A stretch of DNA of 64,000 bases from a virus (IMGVR_UViG_3300035498_000732:32001-96000), one strand, 5' to 3'. Positions 120 through 30,972 are shown, counted from the first letter of the stretch. Notes: generated from the letters alone by a model not told the origin. Made by a program: numbers and translations.

Positions 120-175
120 TCAGGGATTTTTTTTTTACATTTATATAATTATTAATAATTTGGAGGATAATAGTT

Positions 176-1579
176 ATGGGATATTTTGCTGATAACTTCG
201 ATTATGTACTTGAAAGTATTCAAGTAGTGCATGAAGTATATTTTGGTAAAACCAAAGAAGTTCTTGCAATAGAAAAAGCTATTCATAATCTTAGAGAACC
301 ATATTTAAGTGGAAAGAATAAGAATAATAGTCCTTTAGCAAACTCTCTTCGCCTTGACCCAAATAAGAGAAAACTAGAGGATGCTATATGTAATGCATTT
401 GGATTTTCAGATACATTTATATCTATACAAAATTCTTATACCCAAAATGCATATACTCAGCCCACATCGTATTCTATCGATCTAGGATCTGGTAAATTAA
501 ATAGATCAGCTAGAAGGGCTAGTTCAAAAGTAAAAGGATATAGATTTGATCCTAAAGATAACATTGTATTTACATTAACCATGTTTTCTGGAGTGATTCT
601 TAATCCAGAATATACTGATGCAGAATTGACAGCAATTATACTTCATGAGATTGGGCATAACTTTACAGCTACTAGTGAGAGAGGAACGAGAATTCTTACA
701 GCTATTCCTGTATTAGCTTCTTTTATTAGATGCATGGCAGATATAGTTGCTCAAATATTGCAATATACAGCTCAAGGAATAGTAGCTATAGGTGCAGTTC
801 CAGCACTCATACAAGAATTTATTGAAGATATTGTATTCGGAGCAAATGCCACTAGAACTATTGGAGGAAGATTTAGTAGACTCTTTGATAATTGGCTAAA
901 AGATTTGCAGGAGAAAAATCCAGGAATACTTATGATAATTGGATCTTATTCATATATCATGAATATATATACGGATATTATTGCAACCATGCAATATTTC
1001 TGCAGCCTATTTCCAAATTATTTTCTTCTTCCAGTTGATATGATTGGAAGATTTGTTAGAGGCCTAGGTAGTCCAACTGGATATGCTGATGAGAAATTTG
1101 CAGATTCATTTCCTAGAATGTATGGATATGGCCCAGAGCTTGTATCAGCATTAGATAAAATGGCACTGCAACCAAATAGTTCATTTGAAAAAGCAGCTCA
1201 AGAATTAATTCTTCCACTGCAAGCAGTAGCCTCAATATATTGCACACCATATTGGATGATGGTTTATTTATTTGATGAGCATCCATATACATCTGACAGA
1301 GCTAAATTTATGGTGCAAGACCTTAAGGCCGAATTAAATGATAAATCATGTACTCTTAGTCCAGCTACTAAAAAGCAAATGATTCAAGATGCAGAGAAAA
1401 TTCAGGAAGAATTAGATGCATATTTGGATAGTGCATCTACTATTAAAGCATCTAAAGAATTAGGAATTAGATCTTGGCAAAATGCTATGCAAGCAGTATT
1501 TGGAGGATCTATTAAAGGTAAAATTAAAGCAAGAAATGTAAATAAAGATATTAATAGATTCTTTGATGACTTGGATTAA
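176..1579 (+). CDS. Zinc metallopeptidase (M48-like), putative virion head protein
   Basis: HEIGH zinc motif, downstream DEKFAD and DEHP motifs, hydrophobic middle; GGAGG RBS; late-type promoter at 136-149; N-terminal YVLE|S motif. Confidence 0.7.
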   Translation: MGYFADNFDYVLESIQVVHEVYFGKTKEVLAIEKAIHNLREPYLSGKNKNNSPLANSLRLDPNKRKLEDAICNAFGFSDTFISIQNSYTQNAYTQPTSYSIDLGSGKLNRSARRASSKVKGYRFDPKDNIVFTLTMFSGVILNPEYTDAELTAIILHEIGHNFTATSERGTRILTAIPVLASFIRCMADIVAQILQYTAQGIVAIGAVPALIQEFIEDIVFGANATRTIGGRFSRLFDNWLKDLQEKNPGILMIIGSYSYIMNIYTDIIATMQYFCSLFPNYFLLPVDMIGRFVRGLGSPTGYADEKFADSFPRMYGYGPELVSALDKMALQPNSSFEKAAQELILPLQAVASIYCTPYWMMVYLFDEHPYTSDRAKFMVQDLKAELNDKSCTLSPATKKQMIQDAEKIQEELDAYLDSASTIKASKELGIRSWQNAMQAVFGGSIKGKIKARNVNKDINRFFDDLD

Positions 1580-1607
1580 AATAAGGAGTGCTATAATAGC
1601 ACTCCTT
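1576..1607 (+). terminator. Terminator hairpin, copy 1 of a 32-nt duplicated element
   Basis: aaggagtgcta-taa-tagcactcctt; 31/32 identical to 2191-2222. Confidence 0.8.
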
Positions 1608-1711
1608 CTTTATTTCTTTAAATAGTCAATATTTGATACAAAATCGTTTTTTTTTTTTGAACGTATTTTTAATATTATATATAATACTTGTAAGGAGGTA
1701 CTACTTTAATT

Positions 1712-2194
1712 ATGATAGATATGAATGGCAGCATTGATGAGATTATGAATGAATGTGATATTATTGTAGAATCGAAGAAATCTAGTATAGGAGCAGAAAA
1801 AATAAATTTTCAGAATATTGTTAATCAGCTGCAAGCGATTATGCCTAATGGCTGGAAAAAAGGAATATTTATGGCTGAATATACATCTGGAAGTTATAGC
1901 ATGAAATGCTATGCAGATACTGGAAAAGGCTATAAAATTTGTAATTCCAGAGATATATCTAATGCATTTAAAAATATTAATAAAGAGCTTAATAGTTCTA
2001 GGGATAGTTTGGATACAGATCCATGGTATTCAATTACTATTCATTTTGATAAATCTGGCAAGTTTAAATCAGAATTTGATTATACAAGTCATGATGGAGA
2101 TGTATTGGCATACAAAAAGAAATGGGAAAATAAATATATTGGAAAGAAATCTACTAATGAATCTGTTTTTGAGTCATTATTTAGTCAGATTTAA
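1712..2194 (+). CDS. YezG/DUF600 (EsaG-like) immunity-family domain flanked by phage leader and tail peptides
   Basis: Core FQNIVNQLQAIMPNGWKK..AE...PWYSITIHFDKSGKFKSEFDY...W fits the DUF600 pattern (IPxxWxK, PWxSxT, GKFxxxFxY); leader and tail shared with 2227..2907. Confidence 0.65.
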   Translation: MIDMNGSIDEIMNECDIIVESKKSSIGAEKINFQNIVNQLQAIMPNGWKKGIFMAEYTSGSYSMKCYADTGKGYKICNSRDISNAFKNINKELNSSRDSLDTDPWYSITIHFDKSGKFKSEFDYTSHDGDVLAYKKKWENKYIGKKSTNESVFESLFSQI

Positions 2195-2226
2195 AATAAG
2201 GAGTGCTATTATAGCACTCCTTTTTC
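2191..2226. terminator. Bidirectional terminator, copy 2 of the duplicated element
   Basis: aaggagtgcta-tta-tagcactcctt between convergent genes. Confidence 0.8.
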
Positions 2227-2907
2227 TTATACTAAATTAAGTAAGTCATCAAAAATAGATGATTCATTAGCTGCTTTCTTTTTATCACGCTTTCTATCAT
2301 ATCGTGCTTCTCGTTTATCTTGCATCATTTTTTCATGCGCAGCTAATGATGATCTATACGCATAATCATCTTTATTTTTCATAGGGCCATTCCCATTTCT
2401 GCCATCCATAATACTACTTCTTGCAGTTTTTGAATAGTATTTTCCATAATCATGGTCATGCGTACCTTTTTCAGCTCCTCTAGCATTGGAATATGCAAGT
2501 TCTGCTTCACCTTTTACTTCAGCAATATAATCGCATTCACTCATTATATTCACAATACTCATGTTCATATCAATCATTGACTCATTTGCTGTTTTTCTAG
2601 TGGCCCTATCAACAGATTTATGGAAATTTCCTTTACCTTTTGTATTATATTGATTATCAACTCTATTTCTTCTTCTTTCATAATCCAAAGATGTTTTCAT
2701 TGGTCTACGGGTGCCAGGTTCATCTGATCCTTTGCTTCTTGCCATTTTTTCCATTGCACCGGCATCTTTTCCATAACCATGATCATGAGTTAATTTAGCA
2801 TAATGCCTTCCAGTTTCATAGCCAGCTTCTGCCTCACCCTTTAACTCAGCAATGTAATCGCATTCATTCATGATATTCTCAATACTCATATTCATATCAA
2901 TCATCAT
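2227..2907 (-). CDS. Two-unit tandem-repeat basic protein, putative internal head protein
   Basis: Residues 2-110 and 111-226 each start MIDMNMSIxNIMxECDYIAExKGEAE, contain THDHxYGK and end ANES; GGAGG RBS. Confidence 0.7.
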   Translation of the reverse strand: MMIDMNMSIENIMNECDYIAELKGEAEAGYETGRHYAKLTHDHGYGKDAGAMEKMARSKGSDEPGTRRPMKTSLDYERRRNRVDNQYNTKGKGNFHKSVDRATRKTANESMIDMNMSIVNIMSECDYIAEVKGEAELAYSNARGAEKGTHDHDYGKYYSKTARSSIMDGRNGNGPMKNKDDYAYRSSLAAHEKMMQDKREARYDRKRDKKKAANESSIFDDLLNLV

Positions 2908-3015
2908 CAGTATCCTCCATATAATATATTATATTTGTAATTTATGGTAATACATATCAAGTCATATTAATATTATGTAAAAAAAAAAATATTTTCTCGC
3001 CCCTCTAATTACCTG

Positions 3016-3053: not shown

Positions 3054-6000
3054 ATGGCTATGTTTAATGGTATTAAATACGTGAAAAATCTTACTAAATC
3101 ATTTGGATATGCTATGGTAGATGTAGTTGGAGATATGAATCCAACTTTAAAATCTTTTACTGAGACAAATCAGGAACTTGGCAAAGAATTATATGCTACT
3201 GTTACTGATTGGAAAGGTACAGTAAAGAAAGCTAAAACTGCTATAGTAGAGAGTGATGTATATGAATTTGCTAAGACCTATAAAGAGAATCTATTCGAAG
3301 ATTTAAAAAATGGCACTTTCTATAATAAAGCTCGTAAAGATGAATATGAAGTAAGATTATCTGGATGGTCTGATGAACAGCTCAAAGAAGACTTTGGCGA
3401 TATGTTTGACGATGATGATGACATCAATTTTGATGATTGGGATGAAGATGATCTTAGATCTGATTTATTTATCGCAGAAAGCATGGATGATGTAGGAGAA
3501 AAGATTTCTGCTGCAAATGCAGAAGTTACTACAAAGAGTGCAGAATATATTGTACGTGGCCAGAAAGAGTCTACAAAAATATTATATCAGCAGAATAATG
3601 CATTGATGGGCCAAGCATTAAAAGGAATGGCTGCTATTAATTCAAACCTTGGACAATTAGCAGGTATGCCAGAGATGATGCAGGTTCAAGTAAATAATGC
3701 ATCTAAATTCTTTGAAGATACCACAGGACGTTTAGATCATATTACTGAATTATTAGAGAATATTTCCAATAATACAAATCTATCTAATGAATTCAATCAA
3801 TCTAATGAAAAGAGTGATGATTTTACTTTTAGTGATATCATTGACTCTAAGGGAATGCCTAATCTCAAGAAGTATTTTTCTGTAATTAAGAAAAATATAG
3901 CTAATAGTTCTTCTGAGTTTGATATGCTTGGAAACCTATTTGGTGGTGGTAATGTGGCACTCACATTTGCTGCATCTCCATTAGAAGAACTAATGAAAGC
4001 TGCGGTTAAACAAGTTATTCCTAAAGTACTATCATCATCTATGGATAGATTTAATAGTACACTACAAGGATTCTTTGGATCATTAATATCTAAGATTAAT
4101 GGAGGCTATGGATCAGATAATCCAATTATAAATTGGGTGTCAAAGATATTTGGTATCGATTCATCTCTAAATACAGATATTGATCCATCCAGATATGAGA
4201 AAGGGAAAGTTGCATGGGATGGAGTATCTAGAAAAGCATTAGTAGAAGTTATCCCAGGGCAATTATCTAAGATTGTATCGGCATTAACAGGAGAGTCTCC
4301 ATTAGTATTTGATCCAGAATCTGGAACAATGAAGTCCATAACCGATATATATGATAATGCTAAAAATAGAGTTAAGAACTCTGCTAATTATGCTGGTAGC
4401 GATGTAAGAGCACAGATATATGATGTGCTTGATAAGTCAAAGTATTCATTTAGAAGCTATAATGAGAAGAAAAGATTTGAAGATGATCTTAATAGATTTT
4501 TTATGTATGCTTTTAATGCTGGTGGTATAGATGGCAGAGCTATTAAGAGAAGAGGAGAAGGTGGACTTTCAGATATTGGTATAGACAATAGCAAATTACT
4601 TGAGGGAATATTTGAGAAGATATCTGAAACAGAAGAAGGACGTAATTCATTATTAAATCTTAATAGAAGAATCCTTAGAGAAAGAGACAGCTTATCCAAC
4701 CATACTAAATATATGGAGAGAAAGGGCTCCATTGAATCTTACTTGTCAAATGGCATGTTTGATGATTATTTATATGAATTTGAATCAGATGATAATAAGA
4801 AATTAAGAGCTGCTGGCTATAGTACAATGGATTCATTATCTGGGGTTCAGACATTTGCTAAACAAATTGATGATTATGGCCATAATATATTCTATTATCT
4901 GCAAGAGCAATTAATGCGCTTAGATAAGATATATGAGTTCACAGACTATATGGTTGAGAATGGAGTCAATGGTGATTGGATTCCTAGAAGTGATTTAGAT
5001 CAGGATAGACATCTTATTCTTACTGGCGGAAGTACTATTGATAATAATAGATTGATAAGAGCCAGAATAATTACTCCTAGTGGCCATTACGTTAGACGTC
5101 CTCCAAGTAAGCTTAATGAAATTGAACCTGATGAATATCTTGAAAAGACCACTGCAAAATATATTCTTGATGACTATAATAGAAGACAGTCAGAAAATTA
5201 TATAAATGAAAGAAACAGCTATAGACAAGATAATCCAGATTTCATGGAGACTTATAATGATGATACATCTGGAGAATTTAGTTTTAAGGTAGATGTAGAA
5301 AGGGATATTGAAAATAGAGAAGAGAAGAACAGAGATAAAAATTGGATAGACAGATTATTATCAGAGAAGACACTTGAAGGTAAATTAGGTGTCTTTCAAG
5401 AAAAGACTCAAGATTTTCTCAATAAGCCACTCTTATGGGTTAGCAATATGCTTGATAGTGCAAATGAGAAAGTATATAAGTTAATATATGGGACTGATAT
5501 TGAGAAAGACCTTGAAGAGAAAGGACTTATAGGAATTCTTTCTGATAGTATTCATAATACATTTGATAATGTAAATCTCTGGATTGATGATAATATTCTT
5601 GCTCCATTAAAAGCAAAACTTGGCTTAAGAGGTGAAGAAGGTGGCTTATTAACCAAGGTTGCTGATGTAATGGGCTGGGATATTGAAAAATTCAAAAGAG
5701 ATAAAGCAAGAGGAATCTTTGGCACATATGATGAAGATACCAAGACTAGATCTGGTGGATTACTTGGTGACTATATGCAAAGTGTCAAAGATGCTGCTAA
5801 AGATGTGGCTAAATGGGGCACAGGTAGTGTCAGAGATGTACGAGATACAGTATCTAATGGACTTGGATTAAATGAAATAGTAAATCCATATGCTGATACC
5901 GAGACCGAAGCAGGATCATCATATGACCATAGTAATGCTATTATATCTGCATTGAATAATGCTAGTATCAAAGCTGATTATGATCCAGTACAAGCCGGAT

Positions 6001-9000
6001 ATGATATGTATGATCAGATATTTGGAAATTCTGAGCCAGAAGCTCCAAAACCAAAAAATAAATACATCAATGAGGAAAATGAAAATAGAGTAGCCGAAAT
6101 GCTTAATAGCATTAATGGTTATGCTGTAGGTGGACAGGTTAAGAAGACAGGTATTGCTGCTGTATCTGAGGGTGAACTTATTATACCATCTGAGCTTAAT
6201 CCATATTATAAAGGCACTACAAATAAAGCTCAACAGATGAAGGATGAAGATAATGCCGTAAAGAAATTCTTTGGTAAATATGCTTCAGGAACTACTGATG
6301 TTGGAGATGGCAATAATGGTTATATCATCAATATAGCTATCAATAAGGTTGCTGATAAGCTCAAGAAAGCAAATACTACTAGAGAAGAAATTGCTCAATA
6401 TCTTCAGGACAATCCTCCGGATAAAGAGTTGGATGCAGATGGCGAGATTTCTTATTATGTAAATCTGGCTAAGAAATACTTAAATAAGAAGATTTCTGAA
6501 TATGCTATCAATAAGCTTACAGGCGCTAAGAAGAAGATTGTAAAGTACGATAATAGTGCTGGAAATTATACTCTTTCTGATGGCACTGTAATGACTATGA
6601 AAGCCGGTGAGTATGTAAAGAAAGTTGGTGGAGAAGCTAAATTATTTGCCAGCAATTCCAAAAGCTTCCTTGGAGATTCATTTGGTCAACTTGGTAGTGC
6701 ATTTAAGAGTGTAGCTGAAGTATATCATAGATCTACAGATAATAGAAAGGGAAGCGATACTCCAGAAAGCCAAGCATTTGATGAAATGATTGATGATGTG
6801 AAAGAAAACTTCACTAAAGACTATGCTGGAGCTACTACCGTAGGAGCTGGAATTGGTGGGCTTGCATCATTAATTACTGGAGCTGTAGGTGGTCCTCTTC
6901 TTGGAGCTGCTGTTGGTGGAGCTGTTGGACTTACATTGAAGTCTAATAAGGTTCAGGATTGGTTATTTGGTAAAGAAGTAGACACTGATGAAGGAAAGAA
7001 ATTAGAAGGAGGAGTTTTATCAGAGCAAGCATCTAAATTTATAAAAGAGAAATTACCAGATCTTGCTAAGTTTGGTTTAGTAGGTGGTGCTGCTGGTACT
7101 ATAACTGGTCATCCACTTCTTGGTACATTTATAGGATCAGGTATTGGATTTGCAAAGAATTCTGAGAAATTCCAGAGCTTATTATTCAATACTACCAATA
7201 AACAAGGTCATACTACTAAAGGTCTCTTTAATATGACATCTGAGCAATTCAATGATATGATAGCAAAGAGACTTCCTAAGATGGGAGCTGGAGCTATTGC
7301 TGGATTAGCACTCGGGCCATTTGGTTTAGTGCCTAACCTTGTTATTGGATCTGCTATTGGATTTGCATCAGATACAAATACATTTAAGGATACATTGCTT
7401 GGTAAGGTAAATGAGAAAACCAATAAACGTGAAGGTGGACTCATAGAAGAACTTACTAAGACTATCTTCAAACCATTTGTGAATTTTGGTAAGAATACAG
7501 TTGATAGACTTACAAAATGGCTTGATGATGAAATCATGGGTCGTATTTCTAAATCTATTGAGCCAATTGCCCATTACTTTGAAACTCAAGGTTTAAGATT
7601 TGCTAGATGGATTGGCAGAGGATTCAAGGGTGTTGGAAATGCAATTGGCGGTTCTACTACTGGTAGACGTATATATAGAAGAATCATTGAACCAGTTAGA
7701 AATGCTGCTGGAAATTTAGCTAATACAGCTATTGATATTGCTAAAGCGCCTATTACATTTGGAGCTAAAGCTCTTGAAAATAGAGCTATGGCTGGCCAAG
7801 CTCACGATATAAGACTAGGATATACTGATAATCTTACTATTGATGAAGTAATGGATCAGTATAAGAATAATCCATTCCTTACCAATTATGCAGATGGAAA
7901 TGTGCCTTTAGAGATAGAAAATACTAAAGATGCTAATATGTACAGAATGCAGGCAGGAGTATATGATCTTAAAAAGGCTGGTGATCTTAAGAGATTAAAA
8001 GATCTTCAAGGTGCTGTTGATGCTATGGGCAACATCAGCACTACTTATAAGCAAAAGCAGAAAAATATTATAGCAGAAATGAGAGATAAAACTCTCAATG
8101 ATTATAATATAAGACAGTCTAATAAAGATAGACTTGTTGGACTTGTAAAAGCTGGAAAGCTTAATGAAGATAATATTGATGAGTATCTGTCAGATATAAA
8201 AGCAGTTAATGGTGAATCATTCTCTTATGATGATAGAAATAAACTCAGAGAAGCATTACTTACCGGTGCAGGAAAGCTTGCTGATCTTAAGAGCGACTAT
8301 ACTACTCTTGATGAAAATGGTAAATCTGTATTTGAGAAAAACCAAAAGAAGATTATTGAACAGCAAATGAAAGATTTTGGTATTGCAGATGATAAGTTTG
8401 CTAAATTCATCTTTGGTAATCAAGTTCAAAGAGAAAGATTTGCAGAATTGCTTGGCAATACAATCAATAAGATGGAAGAAGAGAATATCCATGATGAAGA
8501 TAAATCTCCAGAAGAAAAGATTGGTGAATCTGTAGAAGATAATGTAAATAATCTTAATAATCATATGCAAGATCGCCATGATGAACTTATTGATCTTATC
8601 AAGCAAGCCATTAATACTATAGCTGCTAGAACTGGTGGTGAAAGACAGTTTGCTGAGAATGGTGATTATATCGGAGAAAATTCTCCTGTAAATTCTAAAG
8701 GCGCCACTAATAAAGCCAAAGATATAGTAGAAGATGCTGAGAAAAAAGCAAATGAAAGCTTAACCGATAATCCATCTGATAAATTTAAATTTGACCAGGA
8801 TTTGGCAAATGAAGACTATTTGAATGCTGCTGATGAAGCTAAGAAAAGACAAGATGATGCTACAGCAGATATAGAGAACTTCGCAACAGCTGCTACTGGT
8901 GGTAAAGTAAATAAGTCCGGTTTAGCTGCTGTATCAAAAGGCGAACTTATTCTTCCAGAATTTTATGGTAAATTTGCTGATGGTGGTATAATTGGTGCTT

Positions 9001-12000
9001 TGAAGGGTGATGGACTTAATATTCCTGGATATGGGAATATAAGGCTGAGACCTGAATTTGGTGGTACACCTAGAAATAAAACTATTACTAGTCTTGATGG
9101 TACTTATGTATATGATGAGGAAAGCCATGAATATGAAGCTGCTGATGCAGAGACAAGAGCTGCTGATGCAAAGAAAGAAAAGTTAAAAGATTCTCTTATT
9201 TCTATTCCTGATAAGCTCAATAATGTTATTGATGCCCTTGGTGGAACAGAAGATGCTGATGACAAAGAGAAAGAGAGTAATGGATTCTTATCCAGTATTC
9301 TTTCTATGCTTGGATTAACAGGAGCATCTGGTATTGGAGCTACTATTCTTAAATTTGCTAGTAAAGGCATTGGATTTGCTATGACTTTACTTGGTCCAAT
9401 TGCTGCAGCTGCTTTGATGGGAACATTCTTCTCTGGTAAACTTGATGGAATAATTAATACTTTTAGCAGTACTATAGGATCATACATAATGAAATTGCTT
9501 GGAGCTGATGAAGATGTAGATACTATTAAGAGTAATATCAGTCAAAGTGGAGAGAATGGTGAAGATGGAGCATCAGATATAGTTAAGTATTCATTGACTA
9601 AGGATTTCCTGAAAGGTGGTAAACACTTTAAAGCATTTTTTAGAAAAGCAAATGAAAAGCTTGCAAATAATAAGTTATTTAGAAATGCAACAGTTCTTAC
9701 CAAAGGAACTAATTTTGTATCTAATGCTTATAATACTATAGCTAATAAATTATTTGGCGGGGCTAAGGATGCTGCAGAAACAGTTGTAGAAGATAGTTCA
9801 GAAAGTCTTTGGGGCAGTTTCTTAGAGCATAATGGCGATAATGCAGCTAGTGCAATAATGAATGAAGGGGATGATTTAGCTAGAGCTGCAGCAAGTGGAA
9901 ATAAAGAAGGTTTATTGAAGAAATTCACAGGATTATTTAAGAATAAGAATGTTGAAACAGCTGCAGAGAGTGGAGTTGAGAAAGCCGCAGAATCTTCAAT
10001 ATTGCAGAGTGCATTAAAGTCTTCTAAAGAGGCTGTGTCTAAGGTTCTTGCTGCTATTGCTGGACATCTTCCAGAAGGATTAAAGAATAATATAAGCAAA
10101 ATTAAAGATGCTATTGATAATCTTATAGAGACTCAGGCAAAGAAAAAGGCTGAGAAAGATGGAGTTGAAAATGCAGCAAAACTCATTCCTCTCGTAGGAA
10201 AAGTTGTTACTGTAGCATTCTTTGTAGCTGATTATCTTACAGGATACAATAAAGCATCTAGTATACTTGGAGTAGAGAATCCTACAGCATGTGAAAAGGT
10301 TATATCTGGACTCGTAAATGGTTTTCTTGGAATTGGCTTCTTTACATCATTAATTCCTTCAAAGTTATTCATTACGACTATGATTGATGTAATTGGCCCA
10401 TTACTTGGAATTGATAGTACTGAATTAAAGCAGAGACGTCAAGAATATGCCGACAAAGTGGAATCATATAATGAAGAGAATGGTACAAATTACTCTATAG
10501 AGCAATACAATTCTAGTGTAAATGGTGAGAAGGGATTCTTTGAAAAGACTATTAGCAATGTCAAGTCATTATTTAGTAGCAAAGCTAGAACTACTAGAGA
10601 TAGTATGCTGGATAGTGATGGCAATGTAGTAGCTGGAGCACTTGATAAGACTACTAAGAGATGGAAGAAATTCTGGCAGAAGAAGGTTGATAATGGAATG
10701 GATCAATCTTATGCAGAAGCTCTCTATAGAAATGAGATCTTACATGATTCTAGTATGTCATTGACAGATGATTATATTGCTGATCTTCAAGAAAAGATTC
10801 AGAAATATCAGCAGACTAGTGGATCTCAGCAGATTCCTGATATTACTGTGGATCTTAATGGACTTATTAGGCATAATAAAGCCAATGGCCAAAAAGGTGC
10901 TAATGTAAGTTATGGTGATACAACTACAGCAGATTATGTAGGTAATTATGCTTTAGGCGGTATCATAAAGAAAACTGGATTAGCAGCACTCTCTAAGGGA
11001 GAGATGGTAGTTGATAATGCTAAAGATGCTATAAGTGCTATTACTAGTAAATTATTTGGTGGACTTGGAAATGTAGATATCAGTGGATATGAGTCAGTTA
11101 CAGATCTTGGTACATTTATTTCTGATCTGATGAATCTTGATGTAAAGACAAATGGATGGGAAGAGTTCTGGAAAAAGGCAGATGCTGATGATGAAGATTC
11201 AGGTGCTTTAGCTCCAATCAAGAAACTGATTAAGAGATTAATTGCATCTATGGTAGCTCCTGTATTTGCCATGAATATGTCTATGAATAGTGTTGCTGGT
11301 ACATTTAGTAATACACTTGGTACATCTAATACCACAGATACTAGTGATCAAACTACCACTACAACAAGTAGTAGCAGTGGATCAAAGTCATTATTATCTA
11401 TGGCGGCTAGTGCTGCAAAAGGAGTATTATCTAAAGTATCTGGCGGCATTAAGAAATTCTTTGGTGGCGGAACTGGCAAAGAAGATTATGATTCAGAAGA
11501 TGGTACATTTATTTCACAGATAAGTGATAAGTATGCCAATCTTAGCTATGGCAATAGTACATTTGCTGATGAAGGATGTGCACCTGCTACAGCTGCAATG
11601 TTTTTGAATAATACCATGGGTAATCAATATGGAGCAAGCATTGAAGATGCTGCTAAATATGCTGTATCTGGTGGATACAAAGTAGACAATGATGGTACTA
11701 AGGATCAATTCTTTAAGGACTACTTTACTACTAAGGGTATTGATACTGAATCTATTCAAAATTCTAAAGGAATTTATGATAGTATTGCTGCTGGTAAGCC
11801 TACTGTATTACTTGGGCAAGATGCAAAGAATACATCAAAGAAGAAATCTCCATTTGGGAAAGATCCTCATTATGTACTTGCTACTGGAGTAGATGAGAAT
11901 GGTAATATTATTGTAAATGATCCTGAAGCTAAGAAAGGCGGTAAAGCTTATAATAAGAGTATATTAAATGGAGTTAAGAATGCTATAGCTCCAAAGAAAA

Positions 12001-13628
12001 ATGGCGGTAGATCTGGATTAATGAAATCTAGATTGCTTAGTAAGCATTATGGCGGAGGAACTGCTCTTTCTGATATGCATATGGGTGAGAATGGTCTTAA
12101 TCTTCTCAAGAGTTTTGAGACATGCAAACTTACAGCATATAAAGGAGCTGGTGAATCAAATTGGACAATAGGCTGGGGCCACTGTGCATCTGATGTTAAA
12201 CAAGGCCAGACAATAACTCAATCTCAGGCTGATAATTACTTGAAGAAAGATGTTGTTGGCTCAGAAGATGCTGTAAAGAAGTATATGGCCAATGCATCAT
12301 TTACTCCAAATCAAAATCAGTTCGATGCATTAGTTGATTATGTATATAATAGAGGGTCTGGAGCAGCAAAAGAATTATTCAATAATTGTAAAACAGTTGA
12401 AGAGTTCTCCAATGGTATTTTGAAATATTGGGGGAGTAATACTGCATCTTACAAAGGAATAATGAATAGGCGTAAAGCCGAGTATAATTTGTTCAATTCC
12501 TCAAAAGATAATGTAGTTACAGATACTTCAGATTCATCTACTAGCACAGATTCAAGCAGTAGTTCATCCTCTGATGGTATTTCAGGACTGTTTACCAATG
12601 GAGTAAAGAAGATCCTCACATCCATGTATGGCAGTGATGTTGTTAATTTCGTATATGGAGATGATAGTGATGATGATGATAGTAGTAGTTCAGATGATAC
12701 ATCATCAACTGATACAACATCTTCTACCAGTGCTGCAACTATAACTGACAATGGTGCAACTGTAAGTTCATCTACAACTATAGGTGAAGCCGTAGCCAAA
12801 GATGCATATAATTACATAGGTAATAAGTATGTACTTGGTGGCAATGATCTTAATAATGGTATTGATTGCTCTGGATTTGCACAGCAATTGTACAAGAAGC
12901 AGGGATTTACAATACCAGAACGTCATTCATCTAATCAGTATACTGATAGTACTACTGGTAAAACAATTAGTGGAGGATCATTCAAAGATCTTAAACCTGG
13001 TGATGTAATGTTCTTCTCTAATAATGGAAAAGCTAGTGGAATACATCATGTTGGTATATATGTCGGCAATGATACAATGGTTCATGCCTCCAATAGTTCT
13101 CCATATCCAAAGGGCGGTGTCAAAGAAACTAAGAATCTTTCAACCAACTCATATTATGTGAAAGAATATGTAGGTGCTAAGAGGTATGGATCTGGTTCTG
13201 GACTCATTGATCAGAGTAAGGTTGTTGATGCAAACAGATTATTTGGCGGAGCTGCATCATCTACAGAAGGATCGATTTCTTCTACTAATGCTGTAAAAGC
13301 TCGTAAAGCTAAAGAGAATAGTACTGCTTATCAGATGTCTGATGGTATTAAGTCTATTGCCAGTAGTATTTCAAATACTGATTTATCATCTATTACAGAT
13401 TCTATTAGCAGCTTGCTTGAAGTACTTAATAAGATTGCAGACAATACATCAGTTATTGCTACTATATGTGATCTTATTAAGAAGATTATACCTGACAATG
13501 GTGATAATGAATCATCATCTACTACTAAAGCAGATACTACTTTAAGTTCTTCTGGCAATAAGGCTACTACAGACGATGAGAAAGTTACTCAAGTTGTAGA
13601 CATTCTTATGAAATTAGCTCAAGCTTAA
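3054..13628 (+). CDS. Tape-measure-like tail protein with C-terminal C39-like peptidase, GH24 lysozyme and NlpC/P60 domains
   Basis: 3524 aa; Gly/Ala-rich hydrophobic repeats; three AxGG...KxGxAAxSxGE repeats; GCAP..HYVL..VNDP (~11508-11990); FETCKLTAY..TIGWGH..NQFDAL..RRKAE (~12081-12495); DCSGF..PGD..HVGIY..HAS (~12780-13190). Confidence 0.85.
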   Translation: MAMFNGIKYVKNLTKSFGYAMVDVVGDMNPTLKSFTETNQELGKELYATVTDWKGTVKKAKTAIVESDVYEFAKTYKENLFEDLKNGTFYNKARKDEYEVRLSGWSDEQLKEDFGDMFDDDDDINFDDWDEDDLRSDLFIAESMDDVGEKISAANAEVTTKSAEYIVRGQKESTKILYQQNNALMGQALKGMAAINSNLGQLAGMPEMMQVQVNNASKFFEDTTGRLDHITELLENISNNTNLSNEFNQSNEKSDDFTFSDIIDSKGMPNLKKYFSVIKKNIANSSSEFDMLGNLFGGGNVALTFAASPLEELMKAAVKQVIPKVLSSSMDRFNSTLQGFFGSLISKINGGYGSDNPIINWVSKIFGIDSSLNTDIDPSRYEKGKVAWDGVSRKALVEVIPGQLSKIVSALTGESPLVFDPESGTMKSITDIYDNAKNRVKNSANYAGSDVRAQIYDVLDKSKYSFRSYNEKKRFEDDLNRFFMYAFNAGGIDGRAIKRRGEGGLSDIGIDNSKLLEGIFEKISETEEGRNSLLNLNRRILRERDSLSNHTKYMERKGSIESYLSNGMFDDYLYEFESDDNKKLRAAGYSTMDSLSGVQTFAKQIDDYGHNIFYYLQEQLMRLDKIYEFTDYMVENGVNGDWIPRSDLDQDRHLILTGGSTIDNNRLIRARIITPSGHYVRRPPSKLNEIEPDEYLEKTTAKYILDDYNRRQSENYINERNSYRQDNPDFMETYNDDTSGEFSFKVDVERDIENREEKNRDKNWIDRLLSEKTLEGKLGVFQEKTQDFLNKPLLWVSNMLDSANEKVYKLIYGTDIEKDLEEKGLIGILSDSIHNTFDNVNLWIDDNILAPLKAKLGLRGEEGGLLTKVADVMGWDIEKFKRDKARGIFGTYDEDTKTRSGGLLGDYMQSVKDAAKDVAKWGTGSVRDVRDTVSNGLGLNEIVNPYADTETEAGSSYDHSNAIISALNNASIKADYDPVQAGYDMYDQIFGNSEPEAPKPKNKYINEENENRVAEMLNSINGYAVGGQVKKTGIAAVSEGELIIPSELNPYYKGTTNKAQQMKDEDNAVKKFFGKYASGTTDVGDGNNGYIINIAINKVADKLKKANTTREEIAQYLQDNPPDKELDADGEISYYVNLAKKYLNKKISEYAINKLTGAKKKIVKYDNSAGNYTLSDGTVMTMKAGEYVKKVGGEAKLFASNSKSFLGDSFGQLGSAFKSVAEVYHRSTDNRKGSDTPESQAFDEMIDDVKENFTKDYAGATTVGAGIGGLASLITGAVGGPLLGAAVGGAVGLTLKSNKVQDWLFGKEVDTDEGKKLEGGVLSEQASKFIKEKLPDLAKFGLVGGAAGTITGHPLLGTFIGSGIGFAKNSEKFQSLLFNTTNKQGHTTKGLFNMTSEQFNDMIAKRLPKMGAGAIAGLALGPFGLVPNLVIGSAIGFASDTNTFKDTLLGKVNEKTNKREGGLIEELTKTIFKPFVNFGKNTVDRLTKWLDDEIMGRISKSIEPIAHYFETQGLRFARWIGRGFKGVGNAIGGSTTGRRIYRRIIEPVRNAAGNLANTAIDIAKAPITFGAKALENRAMAGQAHDIRLGYTDNLTIDEVMDQYKNNPFLTNYADGNVPLEIENTKDANMYRMQAGVYDLKKAGDLKRLKDLQGAVDAMGNISTTYKQKQKNIIAEMRDKTLNDYNIRQSNKDRLVGLVKAGKLNEDNIDEYLSDIKAVNGESFSYDDRNKLREALLTGAGKLADLKSDYTTLDENGKSVFEKNQKKIIEQQMKDFGIADDKFAKFIFGNQVQRERFAELLGNTINKMEEENIHDEDKSPEEKIGESVEDNVNNLNNHMQDRHDELIDLIKQAINTIAARTGGERQFAENGDYIGENSPVNSKGATNKAKDIVEDAEKKANESLTDNPSDKFKFDQDLANEDYLNAADEAKKRQDDATADIENFATAATGGKVNKSGLAAVSKGELILPEFYGKFADGGIIGALKGDGLNIPGYGNIRLRPEFGGTPRNKTITSLDGTYVYDEESHEYEAADAETRAADAKKEKLKDSLISIPDKLNNVIDALGGTEDADDKEKESNGFLSSILSMLGLTGASGIGATILKFASKGIGFAMTLLGPIAAAALMGTFFSGKLDGIINTFSSTIGSYIMKLLGADEDVDTIKSNISQSGENGEDGASDIVKYSLTKDFLKGGKHFKAFFRKANEKLANNKLFRNATVLTKGTNFVSNAYNTIANKLFGGAKDAAETVVEDSSESLWGSFLEHNGDNAASAIMNEGDDLARAAASGNKEGLLKKFTGLFKNKNVETAAESGVEKAAESSILQSALKSSKEAVSKVLAAIAGHLPEGLKNNISKIKDAIDNLIETQAKKKAEKDGVENAAKLIPLVGKVVTVAFFVADYLTGYNKASSILGVENPTACEKVISGLVNGFLGIGFFTSLIPSKLFITTMIDVIGPLLGIDSTELKQRRQEYADKVESYNEENGTNYSIEQYNSSVNGEKGFFEKTISNVKSLFSSKARTTRDSMLDSDGNVVAGALDKTTKRWKKFWQKKVDNGMDQSYAEALYRNEILHDSSMSLTDDYIADLQEKIQKYQQTSGSQQIPDITVDLNGLIRHNKANGQKGANVSYGDTTTADYVGNYALGGIIKKTGLAALSKGEMVVDNAKDAISAITSKLFGGLGNVDISGYESVTDLGTFISDLMNLDVKTNGWEEFWKKADADDEDSGALAPIKKLIKRLIASMVAPVFAMNMSMNSVAGTFSNTLGTSNTTDTSDQTTTTTSSSSGSKSLLSMAASAAKGVLSKVSGGIKKFFGGGTGKEDYDSEDGTFISQISDKYANLSYGNSTFADEGCAPATAAMFLNNTMGNQYGASIEDAAKYAVSGGYKVDNDGTKDQFFKDYFTTKGIDTESIQNSKGIYDSIAAGKPTVLLGQDAKNTSKKKSPFGKDPHYVLATGVDENGNIIVNDPEAKKGGKAYNKSILNGVKNAIAPKKNGGRSGLMKSRLLSKHYGGGTALSDMHMGENGLNLLKSFETCKLTAYKGAGESNWTIGWGHCASDVKQGQTITQSQADNYLKKDVVGSEDAVKKYMANASFTPNQNQFDALVDYVYNRGSGAAKELFNNCKTVEEFSNGILKYWGSNTASYKGIMNRRKAEYNLFNSSKDNVVTDTSDSSTSTDSSSSSSSDGISGLFTNGVKKILTSMYGSDVVNFVYGDDSDDDDSSSSDDTSSTDTTSSTSAATITDNGATVSSSTTIGEAVAKDAYNYIGNKYVLGGNDLNNGIDCSGFAQQLYKKQGFTIPERHSSNQYTDSTTGKTISGGSFKDLKPGDVMFFSNNGKASGIHHVGIYVGNDTMVHASNSSPYPKGGVKETKNLSTNSYYVKEYVGAKRYGSGSGLIDQSKVVDANRLFGGAASSTEGSISSTNAVKARKAKENSTAYQMSDGIKSIASSISNTDLSSITDSISSLLEVLNKIADNTSVIATICDLIKKIIPDNGDNESSSTTKADTTLSSSGNKATTDDEKVTQVVDILMKLAQA

Positions 13629-15606: not shown

Positions 15607-15661
15607 AAAATAATTGCCCCTTCCACTTCAATATAAGTTTTATAGTGGGAGGGGATTTATT

Positions 15662-16405
15662 ATTAAAAATCGTAAACAGAAATCGCAAGATTATGAAAAG
15701 AAGTACTCTCAGATACCTAGAGATAGAGAAGAGAGATTAAGTTGGATGGTAGATCATTATAATCTATCTCCTAATAAGATGGATGAAATCATTGAAAAGA
15801 AAAGGAATATGGAATTTTATCTTCAATATTACAATTATAAGATTGTATTATATGAGATACCAGAAGGAATGCCTAGACCTAGATTTAGGTTCATAAATAA
15901 GAATAATTATATGATGGCTGCTATGTCTAATCCTAACTTTGTTCAAGTATATTCTCCTACTGCTGGAGATGATTTTAGATTCATGAGAAAATTACAAGAA
16001 GATGAGTTGATACAATTACAACAATTTGTACAAACTCCTTGTGAAGTATACATAGAATCTTATTTTCAGACACCATCATATTTCAATATAACAGATGTAT
16101 TTATAGCAGAGATTGGACTACATCCACAAGTATTAAAACCAGATTGGGATAATATTGGAAAGAAATATTCTGATATGTATAATCACAATATCTGGTTAGA
16201 TGATTCACTAGTAATAGATGGACGAGTAAGAAAGTTTTATTCTATTCTTCCAAGAGTAGAGATATATTTACGCTATCTTAATTATGCCACCAATATTCAT
16301 CAATATAAAAATATCACAGGACGTAAGGAATATAAACCTGAATATCCTATAAACTATTTAGATCAGAAAGGAGAACCATATGGCAAAAGTTGGATCGACA
16401 CTTAG
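15662..16405 (+). CDS. RusA-like Holliday junction resolvase (start uncertain: ATT 15662 or TTG 15614)
   Basis: PRPR, KPDWDNIGK and WLDDSLV motifs of the RusA family; SD GGAGGG 8 nt before ATT 15662. Confidence 0.75.
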   Translation: MKNRKQKSQDYEKKYSQIPRDREERLSWMVDHYNLSPNKMDEIIEKKRNMEFYLQYYNYKIVLYEIPEGMPRPRFRFINKNNYMMAAMSNPNFVQVYSPTAGDDFRFMRKLQEDELIQLQQFVQTPCEVYIESYFQTPSYFNITDVFIAEIGLHPQVLKPDWDNIGKKYSDMYNHNIWLDDSLVIDGRVRKFYSILPRVEIYLRYLNYATNIHQYKNITGRKEYKPEYPINYLDQKGEPYGKSWIDT

Positions 16406-28482: not shown

Positions 28483-30972
28483 ATGTTTAATTTTACGCCT
28501 GATATGCTCTTAGAAAGTGAAATTACTATTCCTTCTATATCTCATTCTAAGCTTACTAATGAAAGTTATTTTTTGACAGCATTAGAGACTGTTCAAAGAA
28601 TCCAGGATGAGTATACCTCTGTTAAAAAGGAATTGTATGAGGGATTGATGAATGAATCATCTACTGATGATTTTAAACGTATATATTCTAAAGCATACGA
28701 AACATCGTTTCCTAGAAAGCAGGATATTACTGTGAAAGAATCTGAAGATTCTACTGAGTCTTTTATCAAGTATTTTTCAGATTCTATTAAAATCCTTAAT
28801 ACTGCTATAGGAAATATTTCTGGGGCTACTACTAGAATGGAGAATCAGATTCCTATTATTAATAAAGAATCTGCTCATATTATTGAAGCATGTGAAAAAG
28901 ATGCCAAGGATTGCCATTGCCCAATCTGCGGTAATTCTCCATGCACATGCAAAAATACTTCTGAAAAGCTTTTTAAATATGATACCAGTAGAGGTCTTCC
29001 AATTACTAGAATTGACTTTTCTTCAATGGAGAAAGTATGCTCTGGTATTGAATATGAAGATGTATACAAGAATATTACAGAAGAAGTCAATCTTGAATAT
29101 TCATTAAATAAATCTACTATGTGTGGATTAAATGAATCTGTTGAAGTATCTAGATCAAATTATGGCAGGGACATTTTAAATAGTTTTGGTTCATCTAAAA
29201 GATATAGTGTAAAAATTAATAAGAACTATATGGATTATTGCAATGAATCTGTATTAGGACTTAAAGAGCATGTATTATCTATAAAAGCTGAAGGTAAGAG
29301 AATTGCTAAATCTTTATCAGAAGCTGTAGATAGAATTGAAGCTGCAAAGAATGCCACTATCACAAATAGATACATCAGAGAAGATGGTACTGACTGCGAT
29401 TTAGATAATGATCAGGTGCAGAATCTTGATTTAGCTTGTAAGGCTAAAACTGATGAATGCATTAGCAAATGTAATGATGCTATCATGGCATTAGGTGCTA
29501 AGCTCGATATGCTGAATAGTGAGTTTAATCAATGCAAAGCAGTGATTGCTCAGTACTCATGTGGTCAGGATCAGCCTGTTGCATTACCTGAGCCAGAGGT
29601 TATTGATATTAGTCCTACTCCAACAGAGCCAACAGATAATGGTATTCCTGGAGCTATTCAAGAAGATCCAGATAGTGATGAGTTACCTCCAGAAGGAGAG
29701 TACGGGGATACAAGTGGAGAAGAGGATGATTTTGACTATGATGTAGATGATGATCGTCCATATTCAGAAGCATTAGAATTATTTGCTCTTGATACTATTA
29801 TTGGGGAGACCCAATTTGATGCATACATTAGAGACATTCTTAATGAATCATCTGATCTTTATATCACTGAAGGACTTATCTCTAGTGCTAAAGATGTTCT
29901 GAATAGAATCATGCAATTCTTGAAGAAGATCTGGGGTAAATTTACTAATTCCATGAATGCACTATTCGAAAATGATGTAAAGTATCTTGAAGAGAATAAG
30001 AATATTATTATTGGTAATACTCCTAAACGAGTAAAGATTGAGAATTGGTATGACTATAAGCTGGATAAGATCAACAATGCAGAGCTTAAAAATATCAACA
30101 ATAACTTTGTGGTTCTCCAATCAGCAAATGCAGCTGCGGTAGAATCCATGGCTACCAATAGTGTAGTTAAGAAATGTGGAGATCCGAAGAATGGAAAGAA
30201 TGATACATTTGCTACATATTTTAATGAGTATGAGAATACAAACTTTGCAAATACAGTAGATAAATTCAAATTCTACTTTAGAGAATCTCCAAAGACTCTT
30301 AATGCAAATACTCTTACACAGAAGCAAATGACTGCTATGTTTGATTATTGCTATTCATTTAAGGATAAAACTCTTAAGGTGTTAAAAGAAGAGATTAATT
30401 CAGTGAATGATATGCATGACAAAGCAAAGAACTCTCTTAATTTACTTGATGATCTTGTACCTGCAGAGGAAGAGAAGAAAGAAGGACAAAATGTAGAACA
30501 GAATAGTGCGAGAGTTGATTTTAGTAGCATTTATAATGACTATTTTGCTGAGGATATCGATATTACCAACAAAACAGCACCAGATAAAAATGTTACTACT
30601 AATGATTCTCCTACTAAAAATGCAGTCAATACTCAAGGCACAGATGATCAGGCTAAAGAAGTAGAAAAACGTAATAATGATGCTACACAAGATAATGTAA
30701 AAGCTAAAGGAATATCCAAGGATACCATCTCTATTATTAAGAATTACTATGATAATGTATTTGGTATGACTAAGGATTTTGTGTCTACTCGTCTTACTGT
30801 AGCAGAATCTGCTTACCGTGACTATATGAAATTATTCAGATGGCATGTTGGTGAGTATAAGGGTACCAAGGATAAGCAAGATTCCTCTGGTGATGTTGTT
30901 CAGCCTACCAATAATGGTGGTAAAAACAAAAACGAAGAGGATAATACAATTCCAGTTGAAGATGAGACGTAA
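28483..30972 (+). CDS. Internal head protein, two modules joined by an acidic linker
   Basis: Many L/I-x-ES motifs; second module YITE|G..NRIMQFLKKIW resembles the two upstream paralogs. Confidence 0.55.
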   Translation: MFNFTPDMLLESEITIPSISHSKLTNESYFLTALETVQRIQDEYTSVKKELYEGLMNESSTDDFKRIYSKAYETSFPRKQDITVKESEDSTESFIKYFSDSIKILNTAIGNISGATTRMENQIPIINKESAHIIEACEKDAKDCHCPICGNSPCTCKNTSEKLFKYDTSRGLPITRIDFSSMEKVCSGIEYEDVYKNITEEVNLEYSLNKSTMCGLNESVEVSRSNYGRDILNSFGSSKRYSVKINKNYMDYCNESVLGLKEHVLSIKAEGKRIAKSLSEAVDRIEAAKNATITNRYIREDGTDCDLDNDQVQNLDLACKAKTDECISKCNDAIMALGAKLDMLNSEFNQCKAVIAQYSCGQDQPVALPEPEVIDISPTPTEPTDNGIPGAIQEDPDSDELPPEGEYGDTSGEEDDFDYDVDDDRPYSEALELFALDTIIGETQFDAYIRDILNESSDLYITEGLISSAKDVLNRIMQFLKKIWGKFTNSMNALFENDVKYLEENKNIIIGNTPKRVKIENWYDYKLDKINNAELKNINNNFVVLQSANAAAVESMATNSVVKKCGDPKNGKNDTFATYFNEYENTNFANTVDKFKFYFRESPKTLNANTLTQKQMTAMFDYCYSFKDKTLKVLKEEINSVNDMHDKAKNSLNLLDDLVPAEEEKKEGQNVEQNSARVDFSSIYNDYFAEDIDITNKTAPDKNVTTNDSPTKNAVNTQGTDDQAKEVEKRNNDATQDNVKAKGISKDTISIIKNYYDNVFGMTKDFVSTRLTVAESAYRDYMKLFRWHVGEYKGTKDKQDSSGDVVQPTNNGGKNKNEEDNTIPVEDET

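Follow-up and report, generated by a model that had tools for sequence, protein, structure and literature searches.

A pair of convergent genes, here called A and B, raises the question of whether short peptides that their products share at both ends are tags that load changing cargo into the head of a giant phage. The genes lie on contig IMGVR_UViG_3300035498_000732 (126,688 bp, 33.7% G+C, estimated to be 52% complete, for a full genome of about 245 kb), which comes from an uncultivated AR9-like giant phage whose hosts are probably of the Clostridia type. The window is the whole stretch of 64,000 nucleotides that was analyzed (positions 32001-96000 of the contig). Features are listed in Table 1; coordinates are those of the window unless the contig is named.

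Table 1. Positions of the genes, tags and regulatory elements discussed in the text.
Feature	Position	Strand	Remarks
Predicted promoter of zincin gene	127..147	+	T-run, ACA-N6-TA late-type core
Zincin-like gene	176..1579	+	467 aa; HEIGH motif, hydrophobic segments; phrog_2767 and weak Peptidase_M48 match
Predicted terminator hairpin, copy 1	1576..1610	.	Left edge of gene A cassette; direct repeat D3
Predicted promoter of gene A	1647..1671	+	12 T, then AACG-N6-TA
Gene A	1712-2194	+	160 aa
Leader of gene A, MIDMNGSIDEIMNECDIIVE	1712..1771	+	Ends I-V-E; leader HMM 39.7 bits
YezG/DUF600/EsaG-like core of A (residues 31-143)	1802..2140	+	Pfam, AF2, Foldseek
Tail of gene A, TNESVFESLFSQI	2153..2191	+	Tail HMM 22.2 bits
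Predicted terminator hairpin, copy 2	2191..2225	.	Bidirectional, common to convergent A and B
Gene B	2227..2907	-	226 aa; two basic units in tandem, leader-core-ANES followed by leader-core-tail
Tail of gene B, ANESSIFDDLLNLV	2230..2271	-	Six-frame scan, tail HMM
Internal (second) leader copy of gene B	2518..2577	-	Immediately after ...TANES; DNA pattern, leader HMM
First leader copy of gene B	2845..2904	-	DNA pattern, leader HMM
Predicted promoter of gene B	2968..2989	-	11 T, then TACA-N6-TA
3524-aa virion-type protein gene	3054..13628	+	Pfam: C39-like, lysozyme, NlpC/P60 domains; opens virion gene block
Gene C	contig 121771-122169	+	132 aa; leader and tail
Gene D	contig 122216-122647	-	143 aa; leader and tail
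Two further T-run/late-core sites at C/D pair	contig 121709-121730; 122688-122710		

The sequence-only reading had described a 20-residue leader common to A and B, with a third copy inside B, and a common C-terminal tail. Both open reading frames and all of these elements were recovered. A degenerate DNA pattern of the leader matched the window three times (1712, 2577 and 2904) and none of 100 shuffled sequences, and a six-frame scan of the whole 126.7-kb contig yielded five leaders and four tails in four genes (A, B, C and D). The leader (consensus MIDMNxSIExIMxECDYIAE, 20 residues, pI about 4.1) and the tail (consensus NESSIFDDLLxLV, 12 residues) are both acidic, and in the AF2 models neither had confident structure (pLDDT below 60 in gene A). 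Invariant columns of the family alignment numbered 17 and included M1, I2, M4, N5, S7, I8, I11, M12, E14, C15, D16, I18, A19, E20 and E132. The invariant tag residues show many synonymous codon differences, both between gene copies and between phages, which places the selective constraint on the peptide and not on the DNA. The DNA pattern had no match in the viral, metagenome and genome contig collections that were scanned with it. The leader was thus absent from the bacterial genomes covered, where homologues carrying it would have spoken against the sequence-only reading. The true start of gene B is probably the second ATG (2904), as judged from the spacing of the ribosome-binding site, and its tandem organization appears as an 87-nt repeat with a spacing of 327 nt.

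Searching for further carriers of the leader and tail, as had been proposed, extended the family to a second pair, a relative contig and nine metagenome proteins. Genes C and D form the second convergent leader/tail pair, 88 kb from A and B. The nine metagenome proteins (124-233 aa), all with leader and tail, were found by a word-indexed search with D as query. Searching viral contigs with the family alignment returned contig IMGVR_UViG_3300035505_000222 (G015), with two family members, as sole relative; the same search of metagenome contigs returned no related locus. No PHROG or Pfam family was assigned to B, C or D, and neither A nor D had a tblastn match in 50,697 phage records. The family was not found in AR9, in phiR1-37-type records or in 8 complete AR9-like genomes, leader and tail had no match in 17 records, and no group of AR9 proteins with a common leader was found. 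Since the family is absent from AR9 and the 8 complete AR9-like genomes, nothing can be transferred from cultured relatives.

The cores between the tags had been described as unrelated, which holds for A against the rest (15-23% identity, the background level) and fails for the others. B, D and most relatives have homologous cores with the motifs HDHxYGK and PMKTxDDYR and 29-35% identity; they therefore represent one family and not unrelated cargoes. Family cores are basic (pI 9.3-10.1) and are flanked by the acidic leader and the acidic tail. Apart from A, they are helical or disordered, at low confidence. The AF2 model of D (13-row alignment) was helical with a mean pLDDT of 57, too low for a fold search; in the ESM Atlas its best score was 0.81, to a match without a named family.

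Proteins of the YezG/EsaG/DUF600 type (PF04634) are immunity proteins of the type VII-secreted nucleases YeeF/EsaD. Assignment of the core of A to this family, already made in the sequence-only reading, was upheld by profile and structure. The core matched PF04634 with 41.5 bits (cut-off 21.7; E 1.9e-10; residues 33-151), and gene A scored 35.3 bits with this profile in the genome scan. With 76 homologues, AF2 modeled residues 31-143 at a pLDDT of 93-97. The proposed Foldseek comparison returned BH3703 (2ia1, 3i0t) and Staphylococcus aureus EsaG (8gup, 8guo) as its top six matches, with a probability of 1.00 and a TM-score of about 0.6; the E-value was about 2e-7 for 2ia1, 8gup and 8guo. An exhaustive search retrieved about 150 homologues of A, nearly all of ~125 aa and aligned to residues 30-143 only. 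The closest (44-49% identical) begin and end at the domain edges and lack leader and tail, and neither the leader HMM nor the tail HMM scored in any of the about 150 proteins. The tags were therefore joined to an imported domain, as the earlier idea of a captured bacterial domain grafted between tags had supposed; both the YezG assignment and the grafting are well supported. Judged by its sequence, A is the only true cargo swap in the family, with a bacterial immunity domain in place of the core. The pI of the A core is 8.8, compared with a median of 5.05 in 75 homologues.

Genomes with homologues of A belong to Lachnospiraceae, Oscillospiraceae, other Clostridia and one Synergistaceae MAG. 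Two loci were examined, both of Lachnospiraceae; in each, the homologue is located directly 3' of genes for an Endonuclea_NS_2 nuclease and an FtsK/HerA-type ATPase. Endonuclea_NS_2 nucleases of Lachnospiraceae-type loci include those encoded at L008 3252-3974 and L010 5166-6002. YezG-type proteins are normally paired with such a cognate nuclease, and only ~52% of the phage genome is in hand; A could hence confer self-immunity to a nuclease of the phage's own, host-DNA-degrading or packaged, encoded in the missing half. We consider this quite improbable, since Endonuclea_NS_2 had no match in the 126.7-kb contig, and so none beside gene A, or in 18 related or jumbo-phage records, 8 complete genomes included. 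It is also at odds with the organization of A, which stands by itself as a cassette complete with promoter and terminator.

Another phage contig, IMGVR_UViG_3300001487_000187 (L042), encodes at positions 6979-7464 a further YezG-like protein of 161 aa with 37% identity to A; its gene adjoins a split RNA-polymerase beta-like gene. The protein has an extension of its own of ~40 residues, which starts MIDIND and ends ..LLLE↓AS (here and below, ↓ marks a boundary after Glu). This extension was rejected as a family leader: the alignment is limited to MIDxN and ..E[SA]xKK, and the extension looks SHOCT-like instead (weak, E 0.022). At least three more proteins encoded on L042 have the weak SHOCT-like motif close to their N-terminus. 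The first helix of YezG in many homologues (..SVFQDIFDLI..; P0065 residues 3-15) is weakly similar to the tail (..ESVFESLFSQI); this could be chance likeness between amphipathic helices or the remnant of a truncated second domain. The tail HMM score of P0065 (9.4 bits) was judged not significant.

Expression signals set the tagged genes and the zincin gene apart from the remainder of the contig. Upstream of all four genes, a run of 10-13 T is followed by (A/T)AC(A/G)-N6-TA and then GGAGG. The AR9 late promoter consensus is AACA-N6-TA/G (PMC5312081). The cores before A (1660-1673, AACG-N6-TA) and B (2966-2979, minus strand, TACA-N6-TA) follow T-runs and each deviate from it by one mismatch, in agreement with the late-type promoters that had been noted for both genes. 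A T-run with AC[AG]-N6-T[AG] was found at just 5 sites in 126.7 kb, all of them in front of A, B, C, D or the zincin gene; these genes may thus form a small regulon of their own or have a late promoter class of particular strength.

In G015, the gene order is zincin, a single shared terminator, a one-unit family gene and a giant virion gene, with no gene A. The window exceeds this order by gene A, which brings a promoter, a leader, a tail and a further terminator copy, and by the second unit in B. The two terminator copies (35 nt, 94% identical) are 615 nt apart. Absent at the syntenic G015 site and bracketed by the duplicated terminator, gene A thus represents the insertion or deletion of an entire cassette. 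Each gene combines a conserved promoter-RBS-leader block with a conserved tail-terminator block, so that recombination could move whole cassettes as well as cores. C and D are nearly identical over a block of some 125 bp that runs from promoter to leader. This block and the terminator duplicated around A are what would be expected if the shared ends were by-products of DNA-level shuffling modules and the peptides functionless; such shuffling, mediated by PeSL cassettes, is reported for T4-type phages (PMC2839356, PMC4122927). We regard this explanation as highly improbable, since leader and tail are kept as protein despite many synonymous changes between copies and phages, and since no promoter precedes the internal leader of B. 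The boundary Glu residues are, moreover, among the invariant positions.

The surroundings of A and B are those of virion genes. The open reading frames 3' of the 3524-aa gene match PHROG 'virion structural protein' families; the tagged genes are situated within a virion gene block, and they share their promoter type with the zincin gene. Homologues of the zincin are annotated as 'phage structural protein' in phiR1-37 (g204) and as 'zincin protease' in AR9 (g051), and the zincin gene adjoins a leader/tail family member in G015 as well, which makes the adjacency conserved. An equivalent tag family beside the zincin gene of other AR9-like phages was sought at 18 zincin loci, where leader and tail gave no match.

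Several further features of these neighbors were recorded. The C39-like, lysozyme and NlpC/P60 domains of the 3524-aa protein are located toward its C-terminus, and the motif GGx[VI]xK[TS]G[IL]AA[VL]SxGE[LM][IV][IVL] occurs three times, dispersed along its length. Immediately 3' of the virion structural genes, a 263-aa open reading frame (15614-16405) contains a RusA Holliday-junction resolvase domain (46.8 bits). The zincin terminates in ..NRFFDDLD, and its G015 homologue extends further to ..SSTILNDLL. Other AR9-like homologues have loosely similar, acidic amphipathic C-termini, e.g. ..ALFDTIDKRFDEIL; the homologues compared are those of loci L005 (620-2149) and L022-L039. The C-termini of the zincin (..NRFFDDLD) and of the S77 protease described below (..ESFDLIYDDIML) were discarded as family tails, the likeness being one by eye with tail HMM scores at noise level; the C-termini of the zincin homologues are likewise similar by eye and without a tail HMM score.

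A Peptidase_S77 domain (T4 gp21-type prohead protease) is encoded at contig positions 101116-101568 (39 bits, cut-off 27), within a protease gene at 101005-101943, and Glu is invariant at both tag boundaries (E20 and E132). At the leader boundary, P3 is always I, V, F, M or L (I-A-E, I-V-E, F-N-E, M-N-E, L-D-E and V-N-E). The tail boundary is most commonly A/T/S-N-E followed by Ser: B and D have A-N-E↓S, A has T-N-E↓S and C has Y-K-E↓S. The protease gp245 of SPN3US cleaves after A-X-E with Ser preferred at P1' (PMC10052503), and the Glu contexts at both boundaries appear, as sequences, to agree with motifs published for S77 proteases. The leader site I-A-E follows the rule of T4 and not the S/A/G-X-E rule of phiKZ-like phages, so that two motif flavors must be assumed. 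Two natural fusions are joined at the boundary Glu: one is B (...TANE↓S-MIDMN), which lacks the first tail, and the other is metagenome protein P0011 (...tail-ALYE↓VKGEAE), which lacks the second leader.

The C-terminal extension of the S77 protease contains 5 Glu-Ser pairs where 0.57 are expected (P about 3e-4); in SPN3US, gp245 cleaves off a C-terminal propeptide of its own. Among the substrates known for giant-phage proteases, propeptides at the C-terminus are rare (PMC10052503); S77 substrates in giant phages lose N-terminal propeptides, and the only C-terminal one known is that of the protease itself. For this reason, the packaging reading is at its weakest where it assigns a role to the tail. 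In AR9, the Peptidase_S77 match (L044; G019 88778-89578) consists of two pieces ~375 bp apart on the same strand, both below the cut-off, which is consistent with an interrupted or diverged protease gene. An acidic, coiled-coil-like protein of 829 aa (28483-30972), without a PHROG match or a tblastn match in 50,697 phage records, has eleven Glu-Ser pairs and 5 N-E-S sites, compared with about 0.46 expected from the contig-wide rate. These sites are only suggestive; the protein may be another protease substrate of the scaffold or inner-body type.

By analogy with known internal proteins, A to D would be internal proteins of the capsid, or ejection proteins, whose targeting peptides can be removed, and A an injected nuclease inhibitor; we judge the chances of this reading to be even. 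The genes would be transcribed late from their shared special promoter type. For the steps after transcription, i.e., encapsidation, cleavage, injection and neutralization of a nuclease, we infer a coherent sequence of events from analogy. The precursors would be near-neutral, each with an acidic 20-residue N-terminal leader, a basic core of pI 9.3-10.1 and an acidic C-terminal tail, and the acidic ends would mask the basic core. The leader, possibly with the tail, would steer the precursor into the assembling prohead, and the S77 protease would cut after the invariant Glu of hydrophobic-x-E in the leader and of (A/T/S)-N-E↓S in the tail. The freed basic cores would remain with the packaged DNA and enter the cell alongside it. 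Most cargoes would thus be disordered basic DNA-associated proteins; A would arrive with the DNA and neutralize a host EsaD/YeeF-type (Endonuclea_NS_2) nuclease. An injected inhibitor is plausible because the T4 Ip proteins share just their leader and all three inhibit GmrSD nucleases, and a counter-measure of this type is plausible because a YeeF/YezG-like pair is an abortive-infection system in Yersinia. The position of bacterial homologues of A behind Endonuclea_NS_2 genes likewise makes the target plausible. As part of this explanation, held as a whole at even weight, the core of A would originate from Clostridia-like bacteria.

Late expression alone is also compatible with a role inside the infected cell. 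A to D may be late cytoplasmic proteins that are never packaged, small and basic, which bind DNA and, for example, condense or organize that of the phage, their acidic end helices masking the core or docking to a common partner such as the zincin; the YezG-like A would then act late in the infected cell, e.g., against nuclease toxins of neighbors, the second option of the sequence-only reading. The termini are indeed conserved as peptides and their removal is only putative, the basic cores are flanked by acidic ends, and the zincin gene has the same rare promoter type and a conserved adjacency. We nevertheless consider this unlikely: the junctions of the B and P0011 fusions coincide with the boundary Glu, an S77 protease is present whose motifs match the Glu contexts, the genes are within the virion gene block, and a defense inhibitor whose synthesis is confined to the late phase would miss the time at which entering DNA needs protection.

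The packaging reading can be extended to a two-ended cargo code, in which an N-terminal leader and a C-terminal tail, each cut at Glu, are part of a movable promoter-leader/tail-terminator cassette. Through recombination, this cassette would take up new cargo for the capsid. One captured cargo, an antitoxin mimic of the YezG/EsaG type, would be injected and would act at entry against nuclease toxins of the EsaD/YeeF type or against abortive-infection systems. We put this forward tentatively, as a possibility that is somewhat doubtful. If the packaging reading holds, the principle of the T4 internal proteins, a portable tag and injected anti-nuclease proteins, would reach AR9-like giant phages of anaerobic Gram-positive hosts, with a second, C-terminal tag added and EsaD/YeeF-type nucleases as a concrete target class, and a phage would have turned a bacterial immunity protein into a counter-defense. 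The tags, a natural short pair, would be a candidate for loading foreign proteins into giant-phage heads. If the proteins are not packaged, a domain has nonetheless clearly been swapped within a cassette whose expression signals and tags are conserved.

Conserved regulatory blocks around variable small genes are likewise found in the PeSL cassettes of T4-type phages. These appear to differ from the present blocks, which reach into the coding sequence (leader and tail) and are late and not early elements. With the YezG/EsaG/DUF600 proteins, the core of A has profile and fold in common; in contrast to them, A is phage-encoded, has no nuclease gene nearby, carries a leader and a tail, and has a basic core. 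The Flag-TA system of Yersinia enterocolitica, a YeeF/YezG-like toxin-antitoxin pair, acts as an abortive-infection defense against phages (PMC12643550). It combines a nuclease with an antitoxin of the YezG fold, for which a phage YezG-like protein would be a natural counter-measure; its likeness to A is by analogy, as it is a Gram-negative system with an RNase toxin and a flagellar trigger.

In SPN3US, of a related lineage, the N-termini of the ejection paralogs gp53 and gp54 are identical (PMC5694885) while their bodies have diverged, a pattern like that of A to D (PMC10052503, PMC5694885). The protease gp245 is an S77 homologue as well, and its A-X-E motif with Ser at P1' corresponds to A-N-E↓S at the tail boundary of B and D. 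The propeptides of SPN3US are mostly of 111-254 residues and N-terminal only, unlike the short tags at both ends found here, and neither a family tagged at both ends nor an imported immunity domain has been described for phiKZ-like phages.

[quoted passage not shown] The three proteins have only a packaging leader in common, and all inhibit GmrSD nucleases (PMC12373910); the known T4 cargoes are injected GmrSD inhibitors (PMC12373910, PMC9958956). Like the putative cargoes A to D, they are small proteins with unrelated bodies (as A has against the rest) and a short N-terminal leader ending in hydrophobic-x-Glu, basic, expressed late, encoded at variable loci and accompanied by an S77 prohead protease. 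The leader of A to D is twice as long as that of T4 and has no sequence similarity to it; in addition, a conserved C-terminal tail is present, and one cargo is a recognizable bacterial immunity domain. A to D occur in an AR9-like giant phage of probably Clostridia-type hosts and are putative internal proteins. By analogy, they can best be regarded as a giant-phage variant of the internal-protein scheme of T-even phages.
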